The notes: generated from the letters alone by a model not told the origin. Counted from the first letter of the stretch, positions 1 to 46,974 are shown. The stretch: DNA of 64,000 bases from Isurus oxyrinchus (GCA_026770705.1 JANJGN010000052.1:248001-312000), one strand, 5' to 3'. Translations and numbers: made by a program.

Positions 1-235
1 CTTCCCTCCTTTTATACTCCATCCCTTTGCAATAAAGGCCAACATTCCACTTGCCTTCCTCATTCCGTGAATGCTTACTTTCTGTGATTCATGTGCAAGG
101 ACACCCAGATCCCTCTGTACTGCATTCTGCAGCCTCTCTCCATTTAAATAATATCCTGTTTTTCTATTCTTCCTGCCAAAATAATTTGTTGTAGTCCTCC
201 TCAGTATTGACCATCCCCCCAATTCAGCCTCATCT
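1..235 (-). mobile_element. CR1-type LINE RT remnant in the leader-V intron
   Basis: Reverse complement of the CR1-like segment at 62740-62980 (RDLGVLVHES..KASG.LAFI). Confidence 0.75.
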
Positions 236-299
236 GTAAATTTGAGTCTAGTGGATCCACAAACCATCCAGAGTTAAATATTGATATTTCTCTCCCCAG

Positions 300-668
300 T
301 TGGACTGTCACAAGAGTGGAAAGGTGACACTCCACGAGAGGTGACAGCGCAGGAAGGTTCGTGTGTACAGATTCCCTGTCATTACAGTTATCCATCGTGT
401 CTGGAAAACCAACCGCGAGGTGGAGTCTGGTTTAATAATGAGAAACAGATTCCCTGGGCTGCCATTGCCTTTCACTCCAAGGATCACAGTCACGAGTTAC
501 CACGGTTCCACCATCGGACCCGGCTGTCTGGAGACCTGAAAGATGGCGACTGTTCCCTGATTATAAACAACATCAGACGGGAAGATGCGGGACCTTATTT
601 TTTCAGAATAGAATTTGACAATGGTCCGAGCCATAACTATTACCCTGTAACCCAGCTTCACGTTTCTG
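300..668 (+). CDS. Siglec V-set Ig exon (sialic-acid-binding domain)
   Basis: ccccag|TT acceptor and CTG|gtaag donor, 369 nt. CxxxxC in strand B, Cys in strand E, F-strand YFFR with the essential Arg and no F-strand Cys. Confidence 0.92.
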
Positions 669-3512
669 GTAAGTGCTGTGTTATAATTACTCAACAATTC
701 ACATCCAACACTCAATGGGAAATAACACAAACTGTGACATTTACATATTAACACAAAACACAGCTTATTATAACACACTGTCTGATTCTCAATAACCTGG
801 TGATAGCTTCCAGTTCAGTCCTAAAGCAACCTCTAATACTCACTTTAACATGAATGATTAAATGTATTGACTGTGTCCATCAATGTTATCAGGTTATCCA
901 CTCCCATCGATCTCCCTAACCCTGTATGACAGTCTTACATATCGACAAAAGAAAGATTCCCATTTCTATAGCGCCGTTCAACACCTCTGTACATTGCAAA
1001 TGGATTCATAACCAATGAAATAATTCTTGAAATGTTGCCCTTGTTGTAATATGGGACACACAGCAGCCAATTTATTCACAGGAAGCTCCCAGAAACAGCA
1101 ATGTGATCAATAACCTGATCATCTGTTTTAGATGCCGGTTCAGTGATTGGTTCAAATGGATTCTCTCCTGCTGGGAACAGGATAGAATTTTAATCTGGCA
1201 GATTTCGGAGAAAGTAACAAGCCAGTGTGTCAGGAACTGTGAGCTGCTCCCCCACCCTCACCTGGGATTGTCAATTCAATTGTCTCAAAGTGGAAGTGAA
1301 TTCATCTGAGAGACAGAAACTCCACTAAGTCTGAAATTAGGAAATTCTCTCCTGATCGTTGTAATCTCTCAATTCTGATATCATCCTTGTAAAAGTGCTT
1401 TCTCTTGTGGGACTGTGGTTTCTATTTGAACTGATGTTTCACGTTATATTTCTCTAAAAGGATCCATCCTCTGTCTGTTAGATTTCACAGATAAACCCAC
1501 GATATTCCCTGCTGAAATTATAGCAGGAAAGTGTGTGGATGTAAGCTGCACCTTCAACACAACGTGCAATGGAACAGCAGCACCTGTCTTAACCTGGGAC
1601 ACTCCCACTGACGTACCTGGATCAGTCTCAAACACTGTAACTCAGCATGGTGTCACTCTGACCTATACTTCTGTTCTGACCCTGATCCCATCACTCAAAC
1701 ACCATGGACACACTCTCAGCTGCAGAGTGAGATATCCATCTGTTTCATCGGAGCGGACCCTCGTACTAACTGTGCAAGGTAAGTACCGACACCTTTCATT
1801 CTACATCAGCACTCCCTCAGCGCTGACCCTCTGACAGTGCAGCCCGTTCTCAGTATCTACATTCTCAGACCTCTCAAAGTGCTTCACAGTCGATAGAAGT
1901 TAACTGATCTTTATATGATTATTACTGAATGAAGAGACAATCTGTCTAAAGTTTACAGCTCGCACACATTATTTTCCATGGCAACACCGCCTCCAATCAG
2001 AGACCACTTGCCAATCAATCAGCACTCTCTTCCCATTAAATATAAATTGTTGTTCACTTCCTGTTGGTAAACCTGTGATCTGTCATGTTGAGTCCTGCCC
2101 TGACATCTGAATATCACAATGAACAGAACAAGTTCCAACAATGAGCTGTGGTTCGTGATTCCTCATGTTACATCCAGGGACACTGGAGACTATCAGTGTG
2201 TGGCAGAGAATGAACATGGAGCAGTGGAGGGTTTCATAACCATCACTGTGGAATGTGAGTGTACACAGACTTCAACAGCTCTCTCAGATTCAAACACTAC
2301 ACAAACACACACAATTATACAAACCTAAATAGACACGTGCAGACACACAATCCCACATGTATGAGCACACAAAAGGACACACTCACAAACAAACACACTA
2401 ACACATTCTCCCCCATGGGTTACCTGACCTCCCTCAGTGCTGCACCGGAGAGTTGACATGGATTCTGGGAGTTGTATTCCCTTTCAAGTTTATGGAAGAA
2501 CGCGGTAATTGCAAAGTCTATTAGACACCCAGGTGCACAGAGATTCTCACAGATACTCTCTGCCTCTCTAACTCTCTATCCTCCTTTAAAAAGCTTCCTG
2601 AAATCTAACCCTTTGACCAGTCACCTGTCCCAACTCCTCCTTATGTAATTCTGTGTGAAATGTTGTTTGAGTATCTGACAGTAAGAGAGAGATGGAGAGG
2701 TTTACGAAGGAATTTCTATTGGTGAAAAGCTTACATTATGTTCTCACCTTTCCAGAGCCCATTTTGCACATGATGTCCAATGTCCAAGATCATAATGGGG
2801 ATTGAATATGTAAACGTCACGCTGCAGTTACACTCTGCCACCAGTGGTGGCATGGTAGCACTTAACACTTGCATCTCCCAGCTTTTCAAGCAATTTCACT
2901 TCCCAATTTGCTACTACTCACTTCAACCACTCCCTGTGGGAGCGAGTTCCACATTCTCTCCTCTCTCTGGCTAAAGATTGGAACTGTTTATTAAGCGGGG
3001 GGTGTAAGTCCGTGGGGGAGTCCATCTCGATCCTGCCCGATTCGCACACACGGCTGAGATGGATTTCCACCCTGCACTAAACGTTTCCAGAATTTTCTAC
3101 AGCACAATCCTGTACACAGCGATGGAGAGAAACATTGGACAGGGAGTCCAACAGCACAATGATCCATTCTCACCAATGTTCCACGCTAAGGGGAAAGTTC
3201 TGATTGTCCACTCTTAGAGTGTTTACAATGAAAACATTCATTCCACATTGAATCCCAGTGGATGGGTCAATATTACAGCAAATGTTGCAGTGATATGAAG
3301 CTTGATTGTTCAGCCAGAGTGAGAGATTGAAAGCGGAGAGTCAGTGATGATTTCTTTCTGTGTGTTCTCTAGACAGTGGAGGAGAGATTCTGCACGTGAT
3401 CCTGATCCTGGGAATACGAGCTGTGATATTCCTTGTGGCTGTGGTTATCACTATCGCTGGAGTCTGTGTCTGGGAGAGACAAACAGTGAAAGGAAGTCGA
3501 CAGACTGTTTGA
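300..3512 (+). CDS. Siglec-like (CD22/MAG/CD33-related family) activating-type receptor, left copy; exons 300-668 (V), 1482-1778 (C2), 3373-3512 (TM+tail); leader exon outside window
   Basis: AG/GT boundaries and all phase-1 junctions give an open frame. Siglec V-set signature SCVQIPC...W...GDLKDGDCSL...YFFR. TM ILILGIRAVIFLVAVVITIAGVCVW with Arg, then a 12-aa tail without Tyr. Confidence 0.8.
1482..1778 (+). CDS. Siglec domain-2 C2-set Ig exon
   Basis: gttag|AT acceptor and CAAG|gtaag donor, 297 nt. DFTDKPTIFP...SCTFNTTC...LTW...LSCRV includes the extra Cys expected for the V-C2 interdomain disulfide. Confidence 0.9.
2101..2254 (+). pseudogene. 5'-truncated C2-set exon remnant
   Basis: MNRTSSNNELWFVIPHVTSRDTGDYQCVAENEHGAVEGFITITVE with an intact gtgagt donor. 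Homology to the central C2 exons begins only at ~2101; the acceptor, first Cys and Trp are missing. Confidence 0.8.
3373..3512 (+). CDS. Terminal TM/cytoplasmic exon with intramembrane Arg
   Basis: ttctctag|AC acceptor. Reads (D)SGGEILHVILILGIRAVIFLVAVVITIAGVCVWERQTVKGSRQTV*; Arg codon CGA at 3417-3419. Not in the ORF track in this frame. Confidence 0.82.
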
Positions 3513-3539
3513 AGCTTTGTGCAGCAACAATCTCATTAT

Positions 3540-4135
3540 GGAACAGAAGGACGGCATTCAGCCCATCGACTCCATGCTGTCTCTCTGTAGAGCAATACAG
3601 TCAGTCCCATTCCCCCGCTCTATCCCCGTATCCCTGCAAGTTTATTTCCCCTCAAGTGTCCGTCCAATTTCCGTTTGAAATCGTTCATCGTCTCCGCTTC
3701 CACCATCCTCGTAGGCAGCGAGTTCCAGCTCATTACCACTCGCTGTGTAAAAAAGTTCCTCCTCACATCCCCCCTCTGCCCACAACCTTCAATCTGTGTC
3801 CCCCAGTCCTTGTCCCATCAGCTAATGGCAACAGCTTCTCTTTGTCTACCTGATCTAAACCCATCATCATCTTGTACACCTCGATCAGATCCCCCCTCAA
3901 TCTCCTTTGCTCCAAGGAGAACAACCCCAGCTTCTCCAACCCAACCTTGTAGCTAAAATCCCTCATCCCTGGACCCATTCTGCTCAATCTCCTCCCCACC
4001 CTCTCAAGGACCCTCACTTCCTTCCCAAAGTGAGGAGACCAGAACTGGACACAATACTCTAGTTGTGACCTAACCAGAGCTTTATAAATGTTCAGCATAA
4101 CCTCCCTGTGTTTGTACTCAATCCCTCCATTTATG
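3540..4135 (-). mobile_element. CR1-type LINE 3' fragment
   Basis: YKALVRSQLEYCVQFWSP...LGLFSLEQRRLRGDLIEVYK, typical of the CR1 ORF2 C-terminus. Confidence 0.88.
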
Positions 4136-4494
4136 AAAAGCTTATTCTTTCCATCAGCACAAACAGCAATTTCCAAGCGGACTCCCATCAGCAGACAGAG
4201 TGCAATGAAACATCGACATGCCTGCTTCTTAATGTACGGAGAGAATCCTGGAACGAGAGATTCTCCTTCTTCTCCTCAGCAAGCTGAAACTTTTCCTTAT
4301 ACCTGGTGCTCCCCAGTGCTGCTGTGTGGACACATCATAACCACGGCATTGTCTGGCTGTGTGCAGCCAACATGGTCGAATAGGAATGAACAGAAATGTG
4401 ACGTTGCTAAACTCTGTTCTCTGATTGGAATGTGCTTTCTGAATGCTGCACCTTTTTCATGCTGCGATAGATTGTAAGAAGCATTTGGCTTATG

Positions 4495-4500
4495 AATAAA
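4495..4500 (+). terminator. Candidate polyadenylation signal (AATAAA) of the left activating Siglec
   Basis: AATAAA inside a block homologous to the 3' UTR of the central inhibitory gene. Confidence 0.4.
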
Positions 4501-4844
4501 ATTACATTGATTAACTCAAGTGATTAAAATGCTCAGCCTGTTCTGTAGATATTTAGAGATTAAAATTCTTATTTTGCTGCAAAATTCTTGGCTCAAAGAC
4601 ATTACTTCATGTTGTCACGTTTTCCAATCAGATGAATTCCTCTGTCCATCTTTATAATAGAAATTTCCAATGTAAACATGTCACATTGTAGCTGCACACA
4701 CTTGCCAGTGGCTGGTGTGATATCAAAGCTGTCTTGCTGCTCAGAAACAGCGAGAAATATTCCTGTTGTGTGCATGAACTTCATGTTAGCATGAGACACA
4801 GGCATCAGATGCAATTTTGTGCAATTTGTACAATGTTCTTTAGA

Positions 4845-5460
4845 CAGCGCAGCACTCCCTCAGTACTGAACCTCCAACAGCGCAGCACTCCCTCAGTTCA
4901 GACCCTCCTACAGTGCAGCACTCCTTCAGATCAGACCCTCCGACAATGCAGCACTCCCTCAGTTCAAACCCTCCGACAGTGCAGCACTCCCTCAGTTCAG
5001 ACCCTCCGACTGTGCAGCAGTCCCTCAGTTCAAACCCTCAGACAGTGCAGCACTCCATCAGTTCAGAACCTCCGACAGTGCAGCACTCTCTCAGTTCAAA
5101 CCATCCGACAGTGCAGCACTCTAACAGTTCAAACCCTCCGACAGTGCAGCTCTCCCTCAGTTCAAACCCTCCGACAGTGCAGCACTCCCTCAGTTCAGAG
5201 CCTCCGACAGTGCAGCACTCCCTCAGCTCAGACCCTCCGACAGTGCAGCACTCCCTCAGTACTGAACCTCCGACAGTGCAGCACTCCCTCAGTTCAAACC
5301 CTCCGACAGTGCAGCTCTCCCTCAGTTCAAACCCTCCGACAGTGCAGCACTCCCTCAGTTCAGAGCCTCCGACAGTGCAGCACTCCCTCAGCTCAGACCC
5401 TCCGACAGTGCAGCACTCCCTCAGTACTGAACCTCCGACAGTGCCGCACTCCCTCAGTTC
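4845..5460. repeat. 33-bp minisatellite (acagtgcagcactccctcagttcagaccctccg)
   Basis: About 18 tandem units; source of the spurious QTLRQCSTPSV ORFs. Mirrored, shorter, at 57555-58035. Confidence 0.92.
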
Positions 5461-6967
5461 TTCTCCGCCGATGCTGCCAGACCTGCTGAGTTTTTCCAGG
5501 TATTTCTGTTTCTGTTTCTGTTTTGGATTTCCAGCATCTGCAGTTGTTTTGCTTTTAGTGCTGGGCAGTTCCTCAGCAAGGATTCGGGCCACAAAACATT
5601 GCGAGTGCTGTGGGTCTGCGCCACGATTTAGAGAGCTGTGCTTGGCACGCCTATTCTAGTCCCAGTCCAGTGTGGTGGGGAGAGTCTGGCAGTCCTGGGT
5701 TGGTGGTGCCCAGCATGGTGTGCAGGACGTGGTCAGTCCCTCACACACGTCGGTCCTGGGGGTGGGTGGCTTGATACTAGGCCGCAGGTGGCACAATCCC
5801 AGTCAGGGGAGGCATCTGCAGCCTGTCAGTGGGGAGCAGGTAATATAGAGAGTAGGGGTGGGGGTGGGAATCGAGGGGGGCCGGTGGTCTCTGTAAGTCA
5901 CGGTACAATGGGCCTCTAGTTGGAGAGAGGTCAGGTCTACATGGGGCATTGGGATGTCAACATCAGACAGTCTAGGGAGGAGGACTGGGATGTCAACCCC
6001 GAACACAATAAGATCAAGGATTAGAGAGGAAGGGAGGAGACTGATTGGAAGGAGGGGAATGTGCACATTATGCTCCTCCAGCACGATGGGAGGGACTGTG
6101 ATGGTTACGGGGGTGGGGGAGTGACGTGTGAGGGGATAGACGCTTACCTGGTGGTATTGCCTCAGCCTCACCCTTTTTCAAGCTGATCCAATGTCGCAGT
6201 TGAAGAATAAGCTACAAAACAAATTGGCAGGGGAGGTCTCCCAGGGCCTGTGGGAGACATCACCCACTGCATCTTCGGCCTGTTTGAAGGGGCACCCGAA
6301 CAATTCCGGCTTTTCCAAATGATGAGGAAGACACAGCTGCACCCCGAGTCCCCTACTGGGGATCCAGAAGGTTGCAATAGCGCTGCGAGGGACTCATGGG
6401 CTCCACAGTGACTCCCTAATTAGCGACTGGAAGGTTTATGTTCATTTATCTTTATTATCCGTTCATATTGAGCAATGGAGCTCCTGATCTGTCACCTTTC
6501 TGTACCTCGTCCAATGCTTCTGTTATCAGGACTTCCACATCGATGTGAAAGAGCCATGATGATAGCAGACAGTCGCACAATGGGAATGGCACTAGGCCAG
6601 TGATCCAGAGGCCCAGGTGAATGCTTTGAAGGCACGGGTTCAAATCCCACCACGGCAGCTGGAGGAATTTCAATTCGATTAATCAATAAATTTAATTGAT
6701 TGATACATTTTTTTCTTATTCATTTCAGGGATGTTGGTGTCGCTGACTAGGCCAGTATTTGTTGCCCATCCCCAATTGCCTTTGAGAACATCTGGATATC
6801 TGAGTTAGGATCAGGAGTAGGTCACTCAGCCCCTCGAACCTGCTCCGCCATTCAGTAAGATCATGGCTGATCTGATTGTCACCTCAACCTCACATTCCTG
6901 CCTACCCCCAATGACCTTTCACCCCCTTGTTAATCAAGAATCTATCTAGCTCTGTGGAAGGGGAGCC

Positions 6968-8905
6968 AATCAATTGGGCTGCTTTGTCCTGGATGGTGTC
7001 GAGCTTCTTGAGTGTTGTTGGAGCTGCACTCATCCAGGCATGTGGAGAGTATTCCATCACACTCCTGACTTGTGCGTTGTAGATGGTGGACAGGCTTTGG
7101 GGAGTCAGGAGGTGAGTTACTGTCTGCAGGGTTCCCAGCCTCTGACCTGCTCTTGCAGCCACAGTGTTTATATGGCTGGTCCAGTTCAGTTTCTGCTCAA
7201 TGGTAACTCCCAGGATGTTGATATTGGGGGATTCATTGATGGTAATGCCATTGAATGCCAAGGGGCGATGGTTATGAATGGTCTGTGGAATATTCTGGTA
7301 CAAAATTTCAACACTCGGACTCCAGATGCAATATTCAAGTGGTTCCTATATTACGCATGTGGGGAGCAAACGCTGGGCAGTCCAGGCGCTTCTCCACCGA
7401 GGTTCAAATGAGCACAGTTTATATATTTTTACTCTCAGTTACAACGTAATGGTATTAGTTAGACAAAGGCCACAGCACAATGACCCCCCGGTGGGCTGAT
7501 AATTGTGTTCTTGTACAGTAATTACAGGGCAGAGACTGGCTATTGTCCTTTTGAGACAGCAAAGAATCTATGTTTGTTCGCTACAAAAGGTTTCCGGGGG
7601 CTGACTGGATGTGGTTCAAGGCCATCGGACGGTGTGAAATAACCTTCCCCATTTCTTGATTGAGTCACCCAGTGTCCTTGTGTGTGTGTCTCCCATTTCC
7701 TCATTGCAAATTTCCAACGGATCCCTTAGTACAGGTTTTTAAGTTTTCACGTAAGGATGTGTACGCTTTGGCGCCCTAGCTGTTGGTCCTGGCTGGCTCT
7801 TGAACATAAATCCAAATTTTCTGCACCTTCAATGAGATTCTCTCTTGTTGGAGTTGGTCATTGCTTGGTACTTGTGTGGCATGAATGTTACTTGTCACCT
7901 GTCAGCCCAAGCCTGGATGTTGTCCAGGTCTTGCTGCATTTGGACATAACTTGCTTCAGTATCTGAGGAGCCGTGAATGGTGCTGAACATTGTGCAAACA
8001 TCAGCAAACATCCCCACTTCTGACCTTATGATGGAAGGAAGGTCATTGATGAAGCAGTTGAAGATGTTTGAGCCTAGGACACTACCCTGAGTAACTCCTG
8101 CAGTGATGTCCTGGAACTGAGATGATTGACCCCCAATAATCACAACCATCGTCCTTTGTGCTGGGTATGACTCCAAGCAGCGGAGAGTTTTCCCCCGATT
8201 CCCATTGACTCCAGTTTTGCTCGGGCTCCTTGATTTGCCACACTCAGTCAAATGCTGCCTTGATATCAAGGACAGTCACTCTCACCTCTGGAGTTCAGCT
8301 CATTTGTGCATGTTTGAACCAAGGCTGTAATGAGGCCAGGAGCTGAATGATCCTGGTGGAACACAAACTGAGCGTCAGTGAGCAGGTTCTTGCTAAGCAG
8401 GTGCTGCTTGCAAGCACTGTTGATGACCCCTTCCATCACTTTAGTAATGATCAAGAATAGACTGCTGGGGAATTGGCTGGGTTGGATTTGTCCTGCTTTT
8501 TGTGTACAGGACGTACCCCATAGCCGGGTAGTTGCCAGTGTTGCAGCTGTACTAGAAAATTCCAGAAAAGCTTGGCTAGGGGCGCAGCAAGTTCTGGAGC
8601 ACAAGTCTTCAGTACTATTGCCAGAATATTGTCAGGGCCTGGAGCCTTTGCAATATCCAGTGCCTTCAGCCCTTTCTTGATGTCACGTGGAATTAATCGA
8701 ATTGGCTAAAGATTGGCATCTCTGATGCTGGGGATCTCCGGAGGAGGCCGAGATGGATCACCCACTCAGCACTTCTGGCTGAAGATTGTTGCGCATGCTT
8801 CAGTCTTGTCTTTTGCACCGATGTGCTGGGCTCCTCCATCATTGAGGATGGGGATATTTGTGGAGCCTCCTCCTCCAGTGAGTTGTTTAATTGTCCATGA
8901 CTGGA
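6968..8905 (-). mobile_element. Degenerate non-LTR retrotransposon (CR1/L2 group) reverse transcriptase, interrupted at ~7274-7843
   Basis: Frameshifted motifs GVTQGSVLG, MFADV, QDLDNIQAWAD, QVRSVMEYSP, LDTIQDKAA. Confidence 0.88.
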
Positions 8906-10769
8906 TGTGACATCTGGAATGCGAAGCTAGTCTCAGTAATGGTGACCATGAAACTAAGGCCAATTGTTGCAAAAACCCATCTGGGTCACTAATGCCCTTT
9001 GGGGAAGGAAACCTGCCGTCCTTACCCATTCTGGCCTACGTGTGACTCCTGACCCACAGCAATGTGGTTGACTCTTAACTGGCCCCTGAAATGGCCGAGC
9101 AAGCCACTGAGTTATATCAAAACCCGCCACAGACCAGTCAAACCAGGTGAACTGCAGCACTTCGAAAAGGCAGCTCAGCACCCCCTTCTCAAGGGGTCAG
9201 TCAGGAACAGGTAACAAACGCTGTCCACATCCCGTGAAAGAATTTTGGTAAAAAGGTAACGTGTATCACCAGTCACGGCCAGCGCCAACCCCCCCACCCC
9301 TACCTGATTGCACCAGTTTCAGATTACACCAGGTCAATGAACGGATAGAAACTCAAACCAATGAGATGAGCACAGAGAAGGATCAAGCCAGAGAGAGTTG
9401 GTGGGAAGAATTGGGAAAGCAACAAAAAAGGCAGAGCGGACACTAACACTATAACAAAGTAAAGACCAGAGGAGGAAGGAAGCAAGTGCGAAGAGGAATT
9501 GAGAGTAGAGCTGGTAGGCTGCTTGTCGAAGCCAAGGAACCTCCATAGGTCACACCCACAGTGCTGTTGGGGAGGGTGATACATGATTTTGACCCAGGAT
9601 CATCAAGTGTTGCACTGGCAGAGCCTTTAAAGTAAAGGGACCTTTACTACCCATGCACCCCCCCGCCCTACAAAGCTGTTGACCTGCTGAGTCCACCTGT
9701 ACAGGCAACCTCCAGACAGTTGGCTACAGAGGCCATTGCAGCTGCTGAATATGACTTCCAGTTTCAAACCCTTCATGAATGCAAGGATGGAGAATTCAGC
9801 AGGAATATTCCTGCACATCCTGTGGCAGATCCTGTAAATAAAAGGGACCTTCACTCACTCCCCAAAGCTGCTGACCTGCTGATTCACATCTACAGGCAAC
9901 CTCCAAATAGTCAACTAGAGAAGACAACGCAGCTGCTGAATGTGACTCCTAGTTTTAAACCCTTCACTCTGGAAAGAAGGAATCCAGTGCAATGGCCTCA
10001 GTATGATTCTTCACAGAAACTGATTTTAAATCTCATGTCTAAGTATTATTTTTCCTTTGCTTACATTTTAATCCCTGCACCTGATGGCTTTATCGCTTCA
10101 ACTTAAATAACTTTCAGCAGGAGCCAGGTTCAAATTGAATGGACAAGCAGGCTTGGGGGGCCAAAAGGCCTACTCCTGCTTCTGTTTATTTATGTTGGTG
10201 TTGTTATGTAGTGGAACTAGAGAGGTTATAGCAGTTATGAGAACATTAAGCAAACAGCAGCAAGAATTGAACACCTACGTTGTGGTTTATGAAAAGGTTT
10301 TTAACCTGGTCAACTGGTAAAATCTGTTGAAAGTGGGCTATCATGGCGTGTGCCGTTTGTGTGATATTTGTAACAACGTTCTCGATGTCGGAACAGTTTG
10401 CATTGAACAAAGCTGATCTTTACCCAGAACTTCAGAGGAAGGGGGGACAATTGTTCCCTGGTGTGGGGGGCATGGTGGGAGGGGAGGGTGAGGGGGAGAC
10501 AAGTAGCCTGAAATACCAAGCCAGACACTTTGTGAAGACAAAAGTTGTTTATTCATTTTTTTTCACAAATCATAATCTTTACAATTAAAGTCCCGACAAG
10601 ATAATGGTGAATCATGAACACATTGTCGGGGTGAATCTGTGCCCGGGAGCATAAAGCAGCAAAATCAAAATCCCGCTTTACATCTCTCTGAATTTTAACT
10701 ATCATTAACCCCAGTAACATCCATTCAAATGACTTAGTCATAAGATTCCTCACACATTCACTTGCACAC

Positions 10770-11240
10770 TCACACACCCACACCCACACAGACACACTGA
10801 CACACTCACTCATTCACATTGACACACACTGACACAGTCACACACACCCACACAGACACACTGACACACTCACTCATTCACATTGACACACACTGACACA
10901 GTCACACACACCCACACAGACACACTGACACACTCACTCATTCACATTGACACACACTGACACAGTCACACACACCCACACAGACACACTGACACACTCA
11001 CTCATTCACATTGACACACACTGACACAGTCACACACACCCACACAGACACACTGACACACTCACTCATTCACATTGACACACACTGACACAGTCACACA
11101 CACCCACACAGACACACTGACACACTCACTCATTCACATTGACACACACTGACAGTCACACACACCCACACAGACACACTGACACACTCACTCATTCACA
11201 TTGACACACACATATTGACAGTCACACACACACACACACA
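10770..11240. repeat. ~58-bp CA-rich tandem repeat
   Basis: Repeated cacagacacactgacacactcactcattcacattgacacacactgacacagtcacacacacc. Mirrored at ~51960-52260. Confidence 0.85.
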
Positions 11241-11571
11241 CGCTCATAAAGACAGACACAAACACAGTCACGTGAGGTGAATAGTGTCGATGTATTTAAG
11301 GGGAAGCTGGATAAACACACGAGGGAGAAATGAATAGAAGGATATGGTGATGGGGTGAGATGGAGAAGGGGTGGGCGGAGACTCGTGTGGAGCAGAAACA
11401 CCAGCATGGAGCAGATGGGCCGAATGGCTTCTTTCCCTGCTGTAAAACGCAGGTAAAGTTTCAGTTGGAATTAATGAACAGGGCCTGTGTGAAATAGATT
11501 GCTAAGCAATGATAAGGAGGGGAGAGGCTGTGGCATGGTGCAGGATGACCTTGCGTGAATGAGGCCAGGGT

Positions 11572-14500
11572 CTAATATCTACAGCAGAGACCACAAGTCT
11601 CATTTGGTTCTCTCCAATTACAGCAGTTACAGCAGAATCTGCAGAGCTGCTGTCTGCCCATTCTCTTCTGGCGCTGCAGCAAGGAGCCCTGGAAAAGCAG
11701 GAGCACAATAGGTGAGAACATTCCGGAAAGAAAGAAGGCATCATTTCAATCAGGCGCGTCATTGGAAGGAGGATGGCACATTTCTATAGCGCCTTTCCCC
11801 TCCTCAGGATGGCCCAAAGTGTTCCACAGCTGAAGGAAGGACTTTTTCTGAAGTGAGCTCACCGCTGTAATGTAGGAAACGCAGCAGGCAATTCACGCAC
11901 AGCAAGATCCCACAAACAGAAATGTGATAATGGCCCCGATTTTCAGTTTTTTACCAATGTCAGTTGAGGGATAAATGTTTGCCCCAGGAAAGCGGACATA
12001 ACTCCACCCATCCAGCCCCCACCACCCCCTCCACACATACCCCCCAACTCCTGACGCACTTCATTTAAATTGTGGCCATGGAATCCTCTATATCCACCTG
12101 AGAGGGCAGATTGGTTGCCCCAGTTTAATGTCTCATCTGAAAGACAGCGCCTTCAACAGTGCAGCACCCCCTCAGTACTGACCCTCCGACTGTGCAGCAC
12201 TCCCTCAGTACTGACTCTGACAATGCAGCACATCCTCAGTACTGACCCTCCAACAGTGCAGCACTCCCTCAAGACTGACCCTCTGACAATGCAACACTCC
12301 CTCAGTACTGACCCTCCGACTGTGCATCCCCCCGCCGGTACTGACCCTTCGACAGTGCAACACTCCCTCAAGACTGACCCTCTGACAATGCAGCACTCCC
12401 TCAGTACTAACCCTCTGACAATGCAGCACTCCCTCAGTACTGACCCTCTGACAATGCAGCACACCCTCAATACTGACCCTCCGATAGCTCGGTCATTCCT
12501 CAATTACGCCTGGTGGTCCTTTTAACTCAGAGCTGAGAGTCGCAGAGAATCGAGCAGACACCCTGAACTGACACTTGCAGTGCAAGTACTGGGAGCGCGC
12601 TGGTCATTATCATGCTGCTGTCTGTGGGATCTTACTGTGCGCCAATGGATGATTCTTTTCCCACATTACATCAGTGACCTCACATGAAAGAAAAAAGCAC
12701 TTGATTGTCTGCGAAACACTTTGGGACGTCCTGATGTGTTCGAAGGCGCTAGAGAAATGCAAGTCCTCTTTGTCTTTCACTCGATCCTCTAAGGTGTCTG
12801 TTGATTAACCAGCCTCTCGGTGTTTGATGTAGGCCTGGTTATAAACAGTTAGAAGGATCAAATATCAAAAATGCTTTGGCTGACAGTCAAACCGATTGTG
12901 CATTCGGAGAGATGAGATACGGTCTGCGCACAATGACTCCAGTCTCTGGCACTGACTGCCGCCTGGGATCTCCCTTCCACATAACACTCACAACTTGCAT
13001 TTACACAGCGCCTCTGGCATTGCAAAATGTCCCAGCCCACATTACTGGAGCGTAAATCAGAGAGAAGTCTAACACTGAGTCACATATGGAGATATTAGGG
13101 TTAGGTGACCAAAAGCTTGGTCAAAGATGTCAGTTTTTAAGGAGCGTCTTAAAGGAGAGAGAGAGAGAGAGGCAGAGAGGTTAAGGGAGGGTATTCCGGA
13201 GCTCAGGGCCCCAGGCAGCTGAAGGCATGGCCACCAATGGTGGAGCGTTGGGAATCAGGGGGACCCGGGAGATGCAGTAATGTCAGAGATTTTGGAGGAA
13301 CATCGGGACCGGAGGAGGTGTTCTCCTGCTCCATATCTCTCTCTCTCTTCCTCTCTTCCACTCCTCCTCTCCCTGTCTCTCTCTCTCCTACTCTTCCGCT
13401 CAATTGCCCTCTCTCCCAATCTTTCTCTCCTCTCTCCCTTTTCCTGTCTCTCTCCCTCTCTCTCCCCTGTCTCCTTCTCCCACTCTGTATCTCTCCCTCT
13501 CTCTCACACTATTTTTGTACCTTTCGCTCACTCTGTAACTCTCCCTTTCCTGTTAATTTCTCTCTCTTGGACAATCTCTCTTCCCTTTTCACTTTCCCTC
13601 ACTCTGCATCTCTTCTTTAATTTCTCCCTCTGTCACTCTCTCCCACCTATGTTCTTTCCCTTTCACCCCTCCCCGTCCCACTCTCTGTCTCTCTCTTCCA
13701 ATCCCTCCCTCCCTCATTCCATCCCTCTCTCCGACTCTCGACTCCCAGCCTCTCTTTAACCCACTCCCAGGCTGGATCAGTCTCCCTCTCACTATTCCCG
13801 GCGTGGGTTACATTTAAAATTCCTGTGGGGATATGTTCACTTCCTTGGAATTGCCTCTTCCCAGCTTTGCAAAAAAAGTTGGGGGGGGCTCGATTTCAAA
13901 CATGCCTCCTGAGTATAACCGAGACAGACTGCCACTGAAATCAGCTTGAAATCAGAAAACTTTCTGTGGAAGAAACGAGCAGGGAGAAACCTTAAAATAA
14001 GGAATGAATTTCCACCTACCGTGTCCGGGGAATCCACAGATTTCTCAATCGTCGAAGAACCTAAAGCAGTGTCAACCTGCAAAAAGAAAGAATTTATCAG
14101 GGAGAAAGTGAGAGGAGGATTGAGGGAGAGGGAGAGAGAGAGAGAGAGGTACAGGAGAGAGAGGGGGAGGAGGACAGACTTGCATTTCTCTAACGCCTTT
14201 CACCACATCCCAAAGCATTTCACAGCCACTGAAGGATGTTTTTGAAGTGCACTCACACTGTAGGAAATGTGGCAGCTGATTTGTGCACAGCAAGATCCCA
14301 CAAATAGCAATGTGATCATGGCCTAGATCATCTGTTTTTGGTGATGTTGGGTGAGGGATAAATATTGGTCCCAGGACACCGGGGAGAACACCCCCTGCTC
14401 TTCCTCCAAATAGTGGCTGTGGGATCTTTCACACCCGCCCGAGAGGGCAGACGGGGGACTCGGTTTAATGTCTCATTCAACATTGTTGTGCTCCCTCAGT

Positions 14501-15976
14501 ACTAACCCTTTGACACTGCAGCACTCCCTCAGTACTAACCCTTCGATAGTGCTGCACTCCCACAGTATTGTCCCTCCGTCAGTGCAGCGCTACCTCAGTA
14601 CTGACCCTCCGACAGTGCAACACTTCCACAGTACTGACCCTGTAACAATGCAGCACTTCCTCAGTACTGACCTCCGACAGTATAGCACTCACTCAGTACT
14701 GTCCCTCCAATAGTGCAACACTTCCACACTACTGACCCTCTGACAGTCCAGCACTCCCTCAGCACGGAGTGTTGACCGACGTTATGGGACTGAATTCCCT
14801 GGAGTGAGACTCAGACCAGAGATTTAGGTAGGGTTGTTCCGGCTGGAGGAGGTTACAGAGATAGGGAGGGTTGTAGAGGCTGTAGGAGGTAACAGAGATA
14901 GGGAGGGTTCTAGAGGCTGTAGGAGGTGACAGAGATAGGGAAGGTTGTAGGGGCTGTAGGAGGTTACAGAGATAGGGAGGTGAGTAGGGGCTGTAGGAGG
15001 TTAAAGAGATGGGGGGGGTTGTGGGGGCTGGAGGAGGTTACAGAGGTAGGGAGGGTTGTAGAGGCTGGAGGAGGTTACCAAAATAGATACTGTTGTAGGG
15101 GCCATAGTAGGTTACAGAGATAGGGAGAGTTATAGTGTGGAGAGGACGTTATAGAGTTCATGAGCATTGTAGGGGCTGGAGGAGGTTACAGTGATTCTGA
15201 GGGTCGTGGGGCCTGGAGGAGGTTACAGAGATAGGGAGGGTTGTAGGGCCTGGAGGAGGTTACAGAGATAGGGAGGGTTGTAGGGTCTGGAGCAGGTTAC
15301 AGAGATAGGGAGGGTTGTAGGGTCTAGAGGAGGTTACAGTGATCATGAGGGTTGTGGGGCCTGGGGGAGGTTACAGAGATAGGTAGGGTTGTAGGGGCTG
15401 GAGGAGGTTACAGAGATAGGGAGGTTTATAGGGGCTGGAGGAGGTTACAGAGATAGGGAGGGTTGTAGGGGCTGGAGGAGGTTACGGAGATAGGGACAGT
15501 TGTAGGGGCTGGAGGAAGTTACAGAGATAGGGATTGTTGTAGGGGCTGGAGGAGGTTACAGATATAGGGAGGGTTGTAGCGGCTGGAGGAGGTTACAGAG
15601 ATAGGGAGGGGTGTAGGGGCTGGAGGAGGTTACAGAGATAGGGAGGGTTGTAAGGCCTGGTGGAGGTTACAGAGATAGGGAGTGGCTGAGGAGGGATTGA
15701 AAACAAGAATGAGAATTTCAGGGGAAACGACAGAAGGAAATGATGTTAAATTCATAGAGGGCGACAATATTAAAGGCACGAACATAATAATATCAAACTG
15801 CGGAAGAGACCAGTCTATCTGGGTGGTAGACGTAGAGTCATGTGCAAGAAACACCTCACCCAGAGGGACATCTCTTAGCTTACCCTCGACAAGGAGAAGA
15901 AGTGACTCAGCTGCAGGGAGAGCAGCAAAGTCAGAGTGAACAAGACAAGTCGCCATTTCATCTGGGAGCTTCCCAT
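11572..15976 (-). CDS. HAMP: Hepcidin prepropeptide, left copy (intact); exons 15976-15884, 14076-14020, 11688-11572; 88 aa
   Basis: MGSSQMKWRLVLFTLTLLLSLQLSHFFSLSR|VDTALGSSTIEKSVDSPDT|GSLLQRQKR-MGRQQLCRFCCNCCNWREPNETCGLCCRY*. Signal peptide, furin site, 8-Cys hepcidin pattern, three exons with phase-0 GT-AG introns, upstream TATA-like box. Confidence 0.93.
11780..12155. mobile_element. Deu-domain SINE-like remnant (HAMP intron 2); related copies ~14180-14480, ~25555-25815 and their mirrors
   Basis: Recurrent gcacagcaagatcccacaaacagcaatgtgat...gttgagggataaat motif, recognised as a shark SINE-like core. Confidence 0.6.
12156..12485. repeat. 33-bp minisatellite (HAMP intron 2); a further array at 14490-14765 lies in intron 1
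   Basis: Tandem cagtgcagcactccctcagtactgaccctctga units. Confidence 0.88.
14840..15685. repeat. 39-bp minisatellite (ggaggaggttacagagatagggagggttgtaggggct) in HAMP intron 1
   Basis: About 21 tandem units; longer mirror at 47270-48370. Confidence 0.9.
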
Positions 15977-16045
15977 CTCTGCCTGTCTCTTCTGATCTTC
16001 TGGCTCTGCTTTGATGCTTTGGTTTGTAACTAGAGGAGCTTCCTG

Positions 16046-16195
16046 CTCTTATACCTGAAACACTTGAAGGGGACAGCCGGGGGCGGGTTGCTGTGTGGTA
16101 TCACACCCATTTCTGGATATTGCAGTGTCGATGTTCCCTGTCCCACTGGCCTGGGACCAGCAGTAAGGTCACTGGGACATTGACTGTCTGGCACC
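16046..16195 (-). promoter_or_regulatory. Putative HAMP proximal promoter, left copy: TATAAGAG (16053-16046), GC box (16079-16087), degenerate BMP-RE GGTGCC-AGAC (16195-16186)
   Basis: TATA-like box ~70 nt upstream of the ATG. Motifs were read directly; function is inferred. Confidence 0.55.
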
Positions 16196-16619
16196 GAGAA
16201 CTATCAGTCCCTCCGCAACGCCCTTCACCTTGTGCAGATATGTGTTCATATTGACGCAACACAACATAGCAAAAACAGAGGGGCTGGTTCTTATGTCGGC
16301 AAATCAGGTGAACCGCATGCCCCCTAACCCCTTACTCCTCTCATTGCTACACTTACTATTTTACAAATTGTGTGCGTTGCTTTTATTTTGGACAAGGGGC
16401 CTCGAGGGGGAACTGATTTACGCTGAGGTTTAGGGGTTAACTGTTTACCATGTGGAGACTGTCTGTCACCAGCTTTGTTCATGGTTTATCCAGGAACATT
16501 GAAGGGCATGAACGTTCTTGCTTTGTATGGAACAAGTTACCAACTGGGTTCAGTCATCGACTCAGACTCACATCAACATAAACTGGCTTCTGACAGGTAA
16601 GTTTCTATTACATGAGGGT

Positions 16620-17220
16620 AGGAGGAGGCCATTTGGCCCCTCGAGCCTGCTCCACCATTCAATGAGATCATGGCTGATCTGCAAACTAGCCCCATATGGC
16701 TTTGTCCCATCTCCTTTAATACCTTTGGATAACAAAAATCTATCAGTCTCACAGGTTTAAAATGAACAACTTGATCGTGCATCAGTTCCTGTTTGGGGAA
16801 GAGAGTTCCAAATTTCTCCCACCCTTTGTACTTCCTAATTTAATTCCTTTTTAGGCTCTGACCCTGAGTCCCAGACTCCCCCCAACCAGGGGAAATGGTT
16901 TCTCTTTATCGCCCCCGATCTGTTCCCCTTATTATCATGCGAACTTTCATCAAATCTCCTGCTTAACATTCTAACTTCCAGGGAATACAAGCCGAGTTTG
17001 TGTTTAATCTCTCCTTGTGATTTAACCCTTGGAGTCCCGGTCTCATTCTGGTAAACTGACACTGCTCTCCCTCCGAGGTCAATATATCCTTCCTAAGGTG
17101 TGGGGCCCAGAATGTCTCACAGTGACTCCAGGTGTGGTCTAGCCAGGGCTTTATGTAGACTGAAGCATGACCTCTGCCCCCTTATATTCTAATCCGTGAG
17201 ATAGAAAGGGCAGAGTTCCA
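16620..17220 (-). mobile_element. CR1-type LINE 3' fragment
   Basis: GLEYKGAEVMLQ / LGLYSLE motifs and a CR1 3' tail. Mirrored at ~45685-46285. Confidence 0.75.
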
Positions 17221-18289
17221 GAATTGTTGTGTTTATTCGACAACAGAATAACAGAGGAAGGTTTCCTCTCTGCCCTCTTCAGCCCCACTGGGAAGGTCAG
17301 GATGAGAAGGTTGGGCTGGGTCCCCTGTACTGGACACTCGCTGAATCTTCCAATGATAGTTCTGGGCTGGATTTCAAAATGCATAGACAAGGATTCAGTG
17401 TTCCATCACATTCTGCCTTTGTCTCTTTTCCTCTCGTTCTCTTTCTCTACCATCCTCTCTCTCTATCTATCTATCTTTCTCCTCATTCTCTCCTGCTTCA
17501 TCTCTATCACTTTCTTTCTACTTCTTTGTGTGTCTCTGTCTGTCTCTCTCTCTCTCACTCTTTCTTTCCTTGTCCTTATCTCTTTCAGTGTCTCCCTCTT
17601 TCTCTCTCTCTCTCTCTCTCTCTAAATGTGACCCTCTCTAACAGTTTGGCCCAGTACTCTTATTTCCCTGTTTTACTGGTGTTCCATTTGAAGGTATACA
17701 AGACCAGATCAGACCAGAATGTTTATTTTCCAGTGTTTACTGTGTTTTTTTTCATTCTGGGTGTCTCTCGACTCTGTCTGTCCCTCTCTGTCCTTTTATT
17801 TCATTCTTTCATGTGATGTGGACATCACTGCCTAGGCCAGCATTTATTGCCCAACCCTAATTGCCCTTGTTCAGAGGCCACTTTTTAAAAGTGAACCACA
17901 TTGCTGTGGGTCTGGAGTCACATGTAGGCCAGACCAGGTAAGGACAGCAGATTTCCCTCCCTAAAGGGCATTTGTGACCCAAATACAAGAATCAGCAATG
18001 GTTTCCTGGTCATCATCGGACTTTTAATTCCAGGTTTTTATTGAATTGAAATTCCACCAACTGCTGTGGTGAGATTCTAACCAGGGTCCCAGGAGCATTA
18101 CACTGGGTCTCTGGATTACTGGTCCAGCGAAAATACCATCAGGCCCCCTCCTCCCCACTCTTCCCTTCCACCATCTTTCACAATCGCTCTCTCTCTCTCT
18201 CACTCTCCTTCTCTCTTCCCCCTCTCTCAGTCTCTGTCTGTCTCTCAATCTCTCTATCGCTCTCTATCTCCTGGAGGCTCTCTCTCTGA

Positions 18290-18915
18290 CTGTCTCCCTC
18301 CCTATATCTGTAACCTCCTCTCTCTGTCCCTTTCCTCCAGCCCCTACAACCCTCCCTATCTCTGTAACCTCCACCTGCCCCTACAATCCTCCCCATCTCT
18401 GTAACCTCCTCCACCTCCCACAACCCTCCCTATATCTGTAACCTCCTTCACAAGCCCATACAATCCTCCCTATCCCTGTAACAACCTCCAGCCCGACAAC
18501 ACCCCTATACATGTCACCTCCTCTAGCCACTGTAACCCTAATAATCTCCCAAGCCTCCACCAGCCTTGACAATCCTGCCCATCTCTGTAACATCCTCCAA
18601 CCACCACAACCCTCCCTATTTCTGTAATCTCTTCCAGTCCCTACAACCCTCCCTATCTCTACAACCTGCTCCACCCCCTGCAACTCGCCCTATCTCTGTG
18701 TCATCCTCCAGCCCCTACAACCCTCCCTATACCTGTAACCTCCTCCAGCCCCTACAACCCTCCCTATCTCTGGAACAGCTTCCAGCACTTACAACCCTCC
18801 CTATCTCTGTAACCTCCTCCAGCCCCTACAACACTCCTTATCTCTGTAACCTCCTCCAGCCCCTACAACCCTCCCTATCTCTGTAACCTCCTCCAGCCCC
18901 TGTAACCCTCCCCAT
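18290..18915. repeat. 39-bp minisatellite at the inner end of the left outer arm
   Basis: ctgtaacctcctccagcccctacaaccctccctatct units; shorter mirror at 44255-44610. Confidence 0.88.
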
Positions 18916-19304: not shown

Positions 19305-19585
19305 AGGGGCTGAATGGCCTCCTCCTGTTCCTGTATAACGGACATAAGTGGCAGAATGGCCTCCTCCTGTTTCTGTGTAACAGTCTTGAGGGGGCTGAAT
19401 GGCCTCCTCCTGTTCCTGTGTAACAGTCTCGAGGGGGCTGAATGGGCCTCTTCTGGTTCCTGTGTAACAGGCTCGAGGGGACTGAATGGCCTCCTCCTGT
19501 TCCTGTGTAACAGGCTTGAGGGGGCTGAATGGCCTCCTCCTGTTCCTGTGTAACAGGCTCAAGGGGCTGAATGGCCTCCTTCTGC
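19305..19585. repeat. ~41-bp minisatellite derived from a LINE 3' tail
   Basis: gggctgaatggcctcctcctgttcctgtgtaacaggctcgag, about 7 units. Confidence 0.85.
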
Positions 19586-19859
19586 ACTGTAAACTTGTTG
19601 TGATACTGTAACTGCCTCTTTGGTTTCATTCAGCTGAATCTTCAGCTCTTCAGTCTCTTCCTTGTATCTCTTGCCTTCCTCCTGGAACATTGGACATGGT
19701 TGGGTCTTCCCTGCCAACTGTTTCTTCAGTTTGCTCAGAGCGGCACAGAATTCGCTTTCTTTCTCTTCAGGATTTTCCAGTGGAACCAACTCTGACCTGA
19801 GGGACACTTGCAGCCTGTGAGGATGCTTCAATTCTTCAAACTCATTCCGAGATACACTC

Positions 19860-20525
19860 TCATATTCCCCCAGCAACTCAGCAACTCCTCCAGTGAAACA
19901 TTTCAGAGCAGCTGAGCTTGGTTTTCTGGAACCAGTCTCGGCCCAGAAGACTAGGGCCCTCACCTGTCGCTATGATCACTGGAAGCTGGGCTGTCTGCTG
20001 CCTGTAGGACACAGGTACTGGGACCAGGTCCTTTCCCTGTATGGATTCTCCAGTGTGTGTCTTCAGCTGATCCATTGTTGGCTCTAAATTCAGCGTCTGG
20101 GTTCCTTCATTTAGCTGTTTAAATGTGGGCTCTTCCACCACTGTGTCTGAGGCTCCCGTATCTGCCCCATTACTAGTGGCTGCCCATTCACTTGGGTTGT
20201 GATGGTTATAGGTTCAGTTTTTACCACTGTGACATTGGACAGGGAATAGACATCGGTATCAGCAGCTTCAGGCTCTGTGATATTATTCACTTCCATCATG
20301 TTGGTGCACTGTCTGATGGGCTGTCTCGATTTCACCCTGCATTGCTTTATTACCCGCCCCTTTCTTGTGGCAGTGATGGCATTCTGCCCCCTTGAACCTG
20401 CAGGTGTCCGGTACGAGCTCACTCCCCCCCACATCGAGAACAGGCCAACTTCGGAGTTGCTGCTGAAATACTCCCACGAAGCCTTTTAGTTTGTGGAGCA
20501 GCAGAGACTGTCTCTCGCTTGGCGG

Positions 20526-20560
<35 letters not shown>

Positions 20561-20952
20561 GTTTGAGCCTCACGCCCGGTGGTTGGTTCCTGTCCCAGCT
20601 GAGGACTGGTGCCATGTTGTAAATCCCGCCAGTCTCTCCCAGCACTTTCCATGCCTGGCGCTATTTCCATGGTGCGCTTCAAATCGATGTCGGCTTCTGC
20701 GAGTAAACGGCTCTGAATGGCGTTGGGGTGAACGACACAAACCAATCGGCCCCGCAACATGTCATTGAGTGTGTCTCCGAGGTCCCAGTGCTCAGTCACC
20801 TGCTTCCACTTCACTGTATAGGTTGCGATGGACTCTCCCTGGGCCCTTACTCTGGAGTTAAACTTAAACCTTTTCATTATTACCCACGGCTTCAGCTGAA
20901 AATACATCTTCATGAGGTCGACTAATTGGTGAAAAGATTTAGAATTGGGTGC
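19860..20952 (-). mobile_element. Ty3/Gypsy LTR retrotransposon gag-protease fragment (frameshifted)
   Basis: KSFHQLVDLMK...RFKFNSR...GESIA...LRGRLVC gag, two CCHC-like knuckles (CSRCGG, CHHCHKKG), gat acg gga gcc tca = DTGAS protease motif, GPSLLGRDW. Confidence 0.85.
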
Positions 20953-22106
20953 AATACACGTCACTGTCTTCAGCTCTGAGACTGTCAATCCTCACCGAAC
21001 AATTCTTCCCTTCCAAGTCGCCGATTATTTTAGCACGTCCCACGAATGTGTCCACCCCATAATTGGGATCTTTGGTGTATGTGATGGTATATTTCCATCT
21101 ATACCAATATTTATACCAAGCTCCGTGCAGTGCTGTGTAAGAGTGGGAAGGAAAGTCAAAGCTACACGGAATAACCACACAAGAGCTGCTGATGGCCCTC
21201 CGAGGCAGCGCCTTCATAGACTATCCCTCTGACATCACTCCTGAAAGGCAACAAGGGAGGGGACTGAACATCAAAAAGCAGAATATTACTTCAATGGAGA
21301 GAGTCTACAGAATGCGGTACAGAGGGATCTGGGTGTCCATGTACATGAATCACAGAAAGTCAGCATTCAGGAACAGCACGGAATGAGGAAGGCAAGTGGA
21401 ATGTTGGCCTTTATTGCAAAGGGATGGAGTATAAAAGGAGGGAAGTCTTGCTACAACTATACAGGGCGTTGGTGAGATTGTATCAGGAGCAGTGTGTACA
21501 GTTCTGGTCTCCTTACTTAGGGAGGGATAGACTCTGCATTGGAGGCAGTTCAGAGGAGGATCACTGGGCTGATTCCTGGGATGAAGGGGGTTTGTCTTAT
21601 GAGGAAATGTTGAGCAGGTTGGGCCCTGTATCCATTGGAGTTTAGAAGAATGAGAGGTGATCTTATTGAAACATATAAGATTCTGAGGTGGTGGGGGGTT
21701 TGACAGGGTGGATGCTGAGGGGATGTTACCCCTTGTGGGGGAATCCTGTGAAGCAATAAGGATGTTTTACTGCATTAAAGGTGCTATATAAATGCACTGT
21801 CATTCCTATTGAAACAAGCTCTCTGATGCACAAACAGAAAATGCTGGAGAAACTCAGCAGGTCTGACAGCATCTGTGGAGAGAGAAACAGAGTTGGTGTT
21901 TCGAGTCCGTATGAGACTTTTTCTTTTGCTAAATTCTCTGACTCGCTAATCACTCACTCTCTGTGTGATCACTAACCCTGTTCTCTAAAATTAAACGTTC
22001 ACTTCCTCACTCCAGGAAAGAATCCAATTCCCTGAGTTCCGATCAGTAATGAATTTGTACCTTGCAGCAAGCTGATGAAGATCAATATCAGACCGACCTC
22101 TCCCAT
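20953..22106 (-). pseudogene. Divergent MAG/Siglec-like pseudogene: leader exon 22106-22061, V exon 21240-20953 (truncated)
   Basis: Leader MGEVGLILIFISLLQG|gt and tttcag| acceptor. In-frame TAG at 21223-21221 where Trp is expected. SCVVIPCSFDFP..HGAWY...GRAKIIGDLEGKNCSVRIDSLRAEDSDVY is then fused to gag. Confidence 0.85.
21275..21750 (+). mobile_element. CR1-type LINE fragment in the leader-V intron of the pseudogene
   Basis: YKRREVLLQLYRALVR..EQCVQFWSP; collinear with 62800-63270. Confidence 0.85.
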
Positions 22107-29532: not shown

Positions 29533-29596
<64 letters not shown>

Positions 29597-30600
29597 CACA
29601 CAGACACACACACACACTGACAGAAACCTGTAGGCACACACATGCATAATTATCCACACACAGTCATACACATACAAGCACATACACAGGAAAATACACA
29701 CCCATCTCAAACACACACACACATTCATGCCCACACATAGACACACACATGCACAAACTCTCACTCATGGACAGACCTAGACACACAGACATGCGTGCAT
29801 GCGCACACACAGACACATGTGTGCATACACACACAAACACACTCACATGTGCAGAAACACAAACACACAGATACACACACGTGAGTTCCCTCTCCTCTCT
29901 CAGTGCCGCACTGGAGTCTTGGTATCAGCTCCGATTCTGTGTTGAAGGAAGGTAAACTCCAGATCAACAAGACCCTGAATTGGATGGAGCAACCTCCTGA
30001 ACAGAGAATTGTAGATTTACCCCTAAGTGCTCCATCAATCAAATACAATTCATTGCCTGTCCAGCCCTTTGCGAAATCCTGAGGATGTGAAAGCAAGCTT
30101 CTTTCATTCTAGATGGACAACACCTCTACTGGTGGGAGAATGCAACTGCAGTGTGACAGTTTACATAGGCAGTGTCCATTAAAAATGTGGCATAAGACGT
30201 TATCCTGAGGGAAGTTACCTGGAAATGCATTCAGACATCAGATACAGAGAGATGATGCATGGTGTCTTGCTGTGCAATAGGTTTGCTCACATTAAACACT
30301 TGATTTGTTTTTAGATGCACCACAGGATCTCTCATTTACTTCGCTTAATATGATTTACGCTTCATCAATCAATATAATTGAGGGGAATTCTGCAGTGATA
30401 ATCTGCTCTGTCGAGAGCTTCCCAGCTTCTAACCTGACGTGGCGACATCTTAATGTCCCAATGAACAGAACAAGTTCCAACAATGAGCTGTGGTTGGTGA
30501 TTCCTCACGTTACATCCAGGGACACTGGAGACTATCAGTGTGTGGCAGAGAATGAACATGGAGCAGTGGAGGGATTCATAACCATCACTGTGGAACGTGA
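27745..30600 (+). repeat. Tandem triplication (~1.05-1.1 kb unit) of an intron plus C2 exon module
   Basis: Units start gtgag.tccctct..tctctcag at ~27748, ~28794 and ~29881. Each ends in a near-identical C2 exon; CA microsatellites separate the units. Confidence 0.92.
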
Positions 30601-46748: not shown

Positions 46749-46905
46749 GGCGCCAGACAGTCAATGTCCCAGTGACCTTACTGCTGGTCCCAGGCCAGTG
46801 GGACAGGGAACATCGACACTGCAATATCCAGAAATGGGTGTGATACCACACAGCTACCCACCCGCGGGTAGTGTTTCAAGTGTTCAAGTGTTTCAGGTAT
46901 AAGAG
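46749..46905 (+). promoter_or_regulatory. Putative HAMP proximal promoter, right copy: GGCGCC-AGAC (46749-46758), TATAAGAG (46898-46905)
   Basis: GGCGCC is the BMP/SMAD-responsive hexamer of mammalian HAMP promoters, and the adjacent AGAC is a SMAD box. Confidence 0.55.
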
Positions 46906-46974
46906 CAGGAAGCTCCTCTAGTTACAAACCAAAGCATCAAAGCAGAGCCAGAAGATCAGAAGAGACAGGCAGAG

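Follow-up and report, generated by a model that had tools for sequence, protein, structure and literature searches.

The 64,000-nt stretch of Isurus oxyrinchus DNA analysed here (the window) carries two hepcidin genes in inverted orientation, copy 1 on the minus strand and copy 2 on the plus strand. A first-pass annotation had assigned a 29-residue hepcidin to positions 11572-11661, and the minus-strand translation of this interval gives exactly that 29-mer and a stop. The peptide is the exon 3 product of an intact, spliced three-exon hepcidin gene coding for 88 amino acids. The coding part of exon 1 (15884-15976, minus strand) has 31 codons of hydrophobic, signal-peptide-like character and an intact GT donor, exon 2 (14020-14076, minus) adds 19 pro-domain codons, and the coding part of exon 3 (11572-11688, minus) holds nine pro residues, the mature peptide and the stop. 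All three exons are in frame and in phase 0 with GT/AG ends (31+19+38 = 88 codons), and the precursor is ordered as hydrophobic leader, pro-domain ending in RQKR and mature peptide. Cleavage at the R-Q-K-R proprotein-convertase site (11662-11673, minus) would release the predicted mature hepcidin (11575-11661, minus), which has 29 residues, eight cysteines, no histidine and a net charge of +2. This structure fits the family, for which three exons and two introns, a prepro precursor of 81-96 aa and an RX(K/R)R site are described (PMC3978493, PMC3325200), and the peptide fits the eight-cysteine hepcidin pattern.

The Pfam Hepcidin model (PF06446) scored the 29-mer with E 2.6e-5 and 24.9 bits, under the 27-bit cut-off, and a 40-aa stretch of copy 2 with 29.1 bits. 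A six-frame scan of the window for the peptide motif gave two matches, the second at 51558-51620 (plus), and a search of Rfam gave none. The AlphaFold2 single-sequence model of the peptide was helical (pTM 0.34) and, with one sequence as input, is uninformative on the hairpin fold. For the unmodified oxidised 29-mer an average mass of 3483.0 Da was computed, and 3138.6 Da for the form without its first three residues. A weaker R-x-x-R motif overlaps RQKR (11653-11664, minus) and ends at mature residue 3; it could yield a 26-residue form beginning with Gln, and it is missing from the two other species compared below.

That the copy 1 gene is spliced follows from run X1, because five contigs exit the window at 11689 and carry on with the end of exon 2, forming the exon 2-exon 3 junction, and because depth is about 1-3e5 on exon 3 and 128 in the intron (~1000-fold). 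Run X1 was judged to be RNA-derived from this junction alone, and contig depth is a poor gauge of expression level. A TATA-like box (16048-16053, minus) lies 77 nt upstream of the copy 1 ATG. In the 1.27 kb downstream of the stop there is a single AATAAA (10548-10553, minus), a putative signal that would give a 3' UTR of ~1 kb. This putative UTR contains, in 10760-11450, a CA-rich minisatellite and a stretch that resembles the 3' fragment of a LINE, and both introns carry long minisatellites.

In the mature peptide of copy 1 the cysteines stand at positions 7, 10, 11, 13, 14, 23, 26 and 27, leaving eight residues between Cys5 and Cys6. This loop (11596-11619, minus) has a charge of -1 and includes the single sequon of the peptide, Asn20-Glu21-Thr22 (11596-11604, minus). 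Loop and sequon were thus described correctly at first pass, as was their presence in both copies, since the mature part of copy 2 (51540-51626, plus) has both. The 4-residue loop quoted for human hepcidin agrees with PDB 1m4f, and teleost hepcidins with loops of 5 residues were seen.

The doubled loop had been read as special to this peptide, and it might be taken as a sign of lost iron function; here a basking shark hepcidin led to a different conclusion. A search with exon 1 pointed to one basking shark gene, three of the 18 candidates being the three isoforms of LOC144671611. Isoform X2 (XP_078389754.1, P0004) is a hepcidin of 88 aa, the same length as copy 1. The two proteins agree in all eight cysteine positions, in six residues before Cys1 and in an 8-residue loop, and Asn15, Thr22 and Gly24 are common to both. 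Unlike copy 1, the basking shark peptide has His3, Leu4, Val6 and Tyr9, a Lys-rich loop with a charge of +4 and a net charge of +5, and it has no sequon; its alignment with human hepcidin-25 begins at residue 2. The 8-residue loop would therefore be a shared shark trait and no marker of lost iron function, because the basking shark pairs it with the classic His3 N-terminus; this comparison covers one other species. An 8-residue loop ordinary for chondrichthyans had been named in advance as an outcome that would speak against the first reading, and it is now found in part, in this one species.

The two shark proteins differ very unevenly along their length. In the prepro part 52 of 59 residues are identical (88%; 29 of 31 in exon 1), whereas among the non-Cys mature residues only 4 of 21 are (Fisher p 1.3e-8). 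This split between a near-identical prepro part and a rewritten mature peptide is what is new here. Among the papers listed in searches of the open literature we found no sequence-level account of cartilaginous-fish hepcidin; hepcidin is reported in nurse shark plasma (PMC9207270). As a single basking shark locus was found, P0004 could be an orthologue of copy 1 rather than a representative of a paralogous type. LOC144671611 is annotated as 'uncharacterized protein' (P0004-P0006), and in two of the three isoform models exon 2 is joined to unrelated sequence. Protein searches with exon 3 gave no match; since neither teleost hepcidins nor the basking shark protein were recovered by them, they do not gauge the rarity of the peptide. 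In the Atlas search exon 3 returned just a plant cluster (0.76) and P0004 returned hepcidin clusters. The single match of a HMMER representative search (P0003) was a tandem-repeat translation and was rejected as chance.

The N-terminus is the part on which the iron function of hepcidin depends. The ferroportin-active patch is given as His3, Phe4, Ile6 and Phe9 (PMC7915682); His3 stacks on ferroportin Tyr501, Phe4 and Ile6 touch Tyr64, and the C-terminal carboxylate touches Cys326 (PMC11919020). Copy 1 has Arg3 and Gln4, as the first-pass annotation implied, and so lacks the HAMP1-type combination of His3 with a hydrophobic residue 4. Its further statement that there is no ferroportin-binding N-terminus goes too far, since Leu6 and Phe9, two of the four patch residues, are kept; in copy 2 residue 6 is Pro. 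A truncation of the N-terminus can be dismissed, because six residues precede Cys1 in the same register as in human. As Leu6 and Phe9 remain and the N-terminal length is conserved, weak ferroportin activity of the peptide is possible.

Compared with human hepcidin-25 and teleost HAMP1, copy 1 thus shares the eight cysteines, the three exons, the convertase site, the N-terminal register, the hydrophobic residue 6 and the aromatic residue 9, and GGCGCC stands in the promoter of its sister copy. It differs in having Arg and Gln for His3 and Phe4 (Leu4 in sea bass hamp1), in GGTGCC in the promoter of the intact copy, and in a loop of 8 residues, compared with 4 in human and 5 in sea bass hamp1. 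One explanation of this mixture is that the peptide is still the ferroportin hormone of this species. Its N-terminus would then have changed in step with shark ferroportin, and binding would depend on Leu6, Phe9 and the C-terminal carboxylate. The conserved N-terminal length, Leu6 and Phe9 are in line with this, as are the carboxylate contact with Cys326 described for human hepcidin (PMC11919020), the lack of a His3-type gene in the 64-kb window, and the GGCGCC retained by the sister copy. Nevertheless, His3 and Phe4 are lost, and the basking shark has kept the classic motif. We consider a persisting hormone role improbable, also in view of the rate of change of the N-terminus described below. 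Sea bass hamp2, which is without His3, is reported to leave iron status unaffected, in contrast to hamp1 (PMC8502971).

Copy 2 keeps exon 1 (46975-47069, plus) identical to copy 1, but with TT in place of the GT donor (47068-47069). Exon 2 (49133-49189, plus) is identical as well, and exon 3 (51513-51629, plus) has five differences, at mature positions 2, 5, 6, 12 and 25, with loop and sequon kept. The GT sites nearest to the first donor are out of frame or past a stop. Copy 2 is probably dead, because its first donor is TT and no in-frame rescue is available. The two copies, which had been treated alike at first pass, therefore share loop and sequon but are not equivalent. In run X1 four of the five coding letters that set copy 2 apart are not listed at 5% or above and the fifth is at ~1%, where a missing row is no proof of absence.

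Both genes lie in a large inverted duplication (1-62980), in which about 1-18660 mirrors about 44250-62980 with 93-97% identity; its centre contains further mirrored blocks and six N gaps. The arms differ at 45 of 2483 unique non-coding sites, and they may be paralogous copies or mis-joined haplotypes. At 11509-11510 in the 3' UTR the contigs of run X1 and of organism C, a second species, show the copy 2 form, and the main coding letters of X1 match copy 1; gene conversion, additional copies or a private allele could each account for this mixed pattern. Each hepcidin copy is flanked by Siglec/MAG/CD22-like Ig exons, a neighbourhood that fits hepcidin. V-set and C2-set exons lie at 278-1780 (plus), with a mirror V-set exon at 62300-62694 (minus). 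We take the human HAMP gene to adjoin the Siglec genes MAG and CD22 likewise. The cluster of such exons comprises 278-1780, 20942-21220, 28157-30600 and 61141-62694, and it includes a tandem set of three Ig exons, nearly identical to one another, at about 28.2, 29.1 and 30.3 kb. By eye, retrotransposon gag/protease-like open frames were recognised at 19583-20991 (minus) and CR1/L2-like reverse-transcriptase fragments elsewhere in the window.

The promoters of the two copies differ at a regulatory element. Copy 2 has an intact BMP-response hexamer, GGCGCC (46749-46754, plus), 226 nt upstream of its ATG, and the corresponding position of copy 1 reads GGTGCC (16190-16195, minus). Both BMP-response elements of human HAMP are GGCGCC (PMC3879105), and a patient with haemochromatosis carried the change from GGCGCC to GGTGCC, by which the BMP response is impaired (PMC3203580, citing Island 2009). 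Copy 1 is thus without the proximal GGCGCC typical of HAMP1, and none was found upstream of it up to the window centre; the whole window has three. The copies differ at 10 of 405 aligned promoter sites, and because five of these 10 differences are CpG transitions, GGTGCC in copy 1 may have arisen by neutral decay or be a private allele. The 8-mer surrounding the element has one occurrence and was matched in 8 of 100 shuffles. No canonical STAT site (TTC-N3-GAA) was seen in the ~5 kb that precede each copy. Of the two copies, the one that has retained the BMP hexamer is probably dead.

These observations bring up the reading that copy 1 is a mere passenger of a Siglec-cluster duplication, under relaxed selection and drifting to loss like copy 2. 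Its location among Siglec-like genes within a large inverted duplication, the dead donor of copy 2 and the decayed promoter hexamer of copy 1 are what such a passenger would leave behind. However, the copy 1 transcript is spliced with an exon depth ~1000-fold that of the intron, the eight cysteines, the convertase site and the protein sequence of codons 7-29 are unchanged in a second species, and change is concentrated rather than scattered. We therefore regard this reading as very unlikely.

The concentration of change is visible in two comparisons. Between copy 2 and copy 1, 5 of 87 letters differ in the mature part and none of 177 in the prepro part (p 0.004). All five differences change an amino acid, a proportion (5/5 non-synonymous) that alone is not significant (p 0.41). 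In organism C (run X15) one contig spans exon 3. Of the 7 coding letters by which it departs from copy 1, five fall in mature codons 2-6, one lies in the pro part, and one, in codon 8, is silent. Runs X19 and X20 (organisms D and E) gave no match, which does not establish absence. Residues 2, 3, 4 and 6 are changed, with His at 4, out of register, and Phe at 6. From Cys1 to the end, loop included, the protein is unchanged, and the eight cysteines, the convertase site and codons 7-29 read as in copy 1. Codons 2-6 carry 5 differences in 15 nt and codons 7-29 one in 69 nt (Fisher p 5e-4), and the same 5/15 exceeds the 6/209 of non-coding letters (binomial p 4.6e-5), for an N-terminal window that was picked after viewing the data and for a single organism C contig. 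For the whole mature part the excess over the non-coding rate has p 0.039, from one sequence pair. An N-terminus that outpaces nearby non-coding DNA speaks against the hormone reading, as HAMP1 and mammalian hepcidins are reported to be under purifying selection (PMC3325200).

Run X1 contains further variants. Minor forms show a two-codon N-terminal deletion and a Pro-to-Ser exchange in the loop with the sequon kept. In addition, one contig (depth 6460) fits the pro region and the 3' UTR, but not 83 nt of mature codons 2-29 (11576-11658). This divergent contig likely derives from a paralogue outside the window, possibly of the His3 type, and a paralogue like the basking shark gene would behave in the same way. 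If Met1 were lost, the organism C peptide would have its His third, an arrangement that we take to be a copper/nickel-binding type of tip.

The sequon offers another explanation. Thr22 is already shared with the basking shark, so that the arrival of Asn20 alone was needed to create it. N-x-T is present in copy 1, copy 2, organism C and the X1 loop variant. Asn20 is residue 79 of 88 in a predicted secreted precursor, with a residue other than Pro at the middle position. Sites in the last 50-55 residues are described to depend on STT3B, with NXT favoured over NXS, and folding can stop late glycosylation, a test site 14 residues from the end being used less efficiently (PMC3613688). On this basis we judge it somewhat doubtful that Asn20 carries a glycan; to our knowledge, a glycan on such a sequon would be out of the ordinary among hepcidins, and a literature search listed no paper on one. 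A glycosylated, long-lived and non-lytic plasma peptide, acting as a host-receptor or lectin ligand, as a decoy or as a competitor of an iron-type hepcidin, would make the glycan the point of the loop change. The sequon in all these forms, the reversed loop charge with a low net charge, and the efficient use of C-terminal NXT sites of which STT3B is capable (PMC3613688) agree with it. Yet Asn20 lies only 9 residues from the C-terminus and two residues before Cys23, where folding can block late glycosylation and where the less efficient use of a site 14 residues from the end (PMC3613688) is a warning. Moreover, the entire core is invariant, so that conservation of the sequon is not specific, and a loop sequon is present in bass HAMP2 as well, although synthetic sea bass peptide is used unglycosylated. 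A role built on the glycan is in our judgement unlikely.

A loop sequon as such occurs elsewhere in the family, as N-M-S in the 5-residue loop of hybrid striped bass hepcidin (PDB 1s6w) and of sea bass hamp2. Like these teleost HAMP2 peptides, copy 1 is without His3 and has a P-N-x-S/T loop sequon; the stretch of 8 residues between and including Cys1 and Cys5 shows no difference, and in sea bass hamp2, too, Cys1 is preceded by six residues. Several copies with a variable N-terminus on a conserved core are common to both, and seabream HAMP2s are described with variable N-termini and a conserved core (PMC11043163), HAMP2 in general as multi-copy and variable (PMC3978493). Unlike the 8-residue loop of copy 1, that of the two bass peptides has 5 residues. 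With several copies, a fast-changing N-terminus and the loss of His3 and Phe4, the HAMP2-like character proposed at first pass is supported. An origin separate from teleost HAMP2 had also been suggested, and this too is supported: the nearest relative found is the shark His3-type hepcidin with its 88% prepro identity, and HAMP2 is reported from acanthopterygians only (PMC3325200), so that orthology was rejected. The likeness to teleost HAMP2 would then be convergence or a retained ancestral core.

Taken together, copy 1 is likely a derived second hepcidin type, probably serving innate defence rather than controlling ferroportin. Of the original proposal of a non-iron, antimicrobial hepcidin, the loss of His3 and Phe4 and the independent origin stand, and the peculiarity of the loop does not. 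A shark-specific defence hepcidin uncoupled from iron and convergent with teleost HAMP2 is the reading that we favour, with a confidence slightly better than even. The second hepcidin of sharks likely evolved independently of that of bony fish, because in the basking shark the long loop is found on a hepcidin of the classic form. The low net charge of +2 (+5 in the basking shark His3-type) and the anionic loop (-1 and +4, respectively) argue against simple cationic membrane killing.

For this shark-specific defence hepcidin we propose the following course. The ancestral shark gene would have been of the His3 type with an 8-residue loop, and a duplication within the Siglec-rich, duplicating block would have freed one lineage. 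The freed lineage then may have rewritten its mature peptide, with loss of His3 and Phe4, a shift of the loop charge from +4 to -1 and the arrival of Asn20 next to the existing Thr22, while it kept the parts for export and processing and perhaps lost BMP control. Its precursor would be cut at RQKR, fold to a hairpin with four disulfides and be secreted. The derived peptide would act on microbes or immune cells via its variable N-terminal face, as in teleost HAMP2, and a His3-type paralogue would still perform the iron job. A stronger version is a lamniform two-hepcidin system, in which a His3 hormone is accompanied by highly expressed, N-glycosylated paralogues that have dropped ferroportin binding and, through the GGCGCC to GGTGCC change known from the haemochromatosis patient, BMP/iron control, and that reach a non-ferroportin target through their fast-evolving N-terminus; all of this together we hold to be rather unlikely.

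If the favoured reading is true, hepcidin divided into an iron hormone and a defence peptide on two occasions, once in spiny-rayed fish and once in sharks. As the two shark types have one scaffold and one prepro part, comparing them would be a natural way to learn which residues turn a hepcidin into a ferroportin ligand. In addition, judging from the basking shark peptide, a loop twice as long as the human one seems compatible with a His3-type hepcidin, which bears on the design of hepcidin mimetics.
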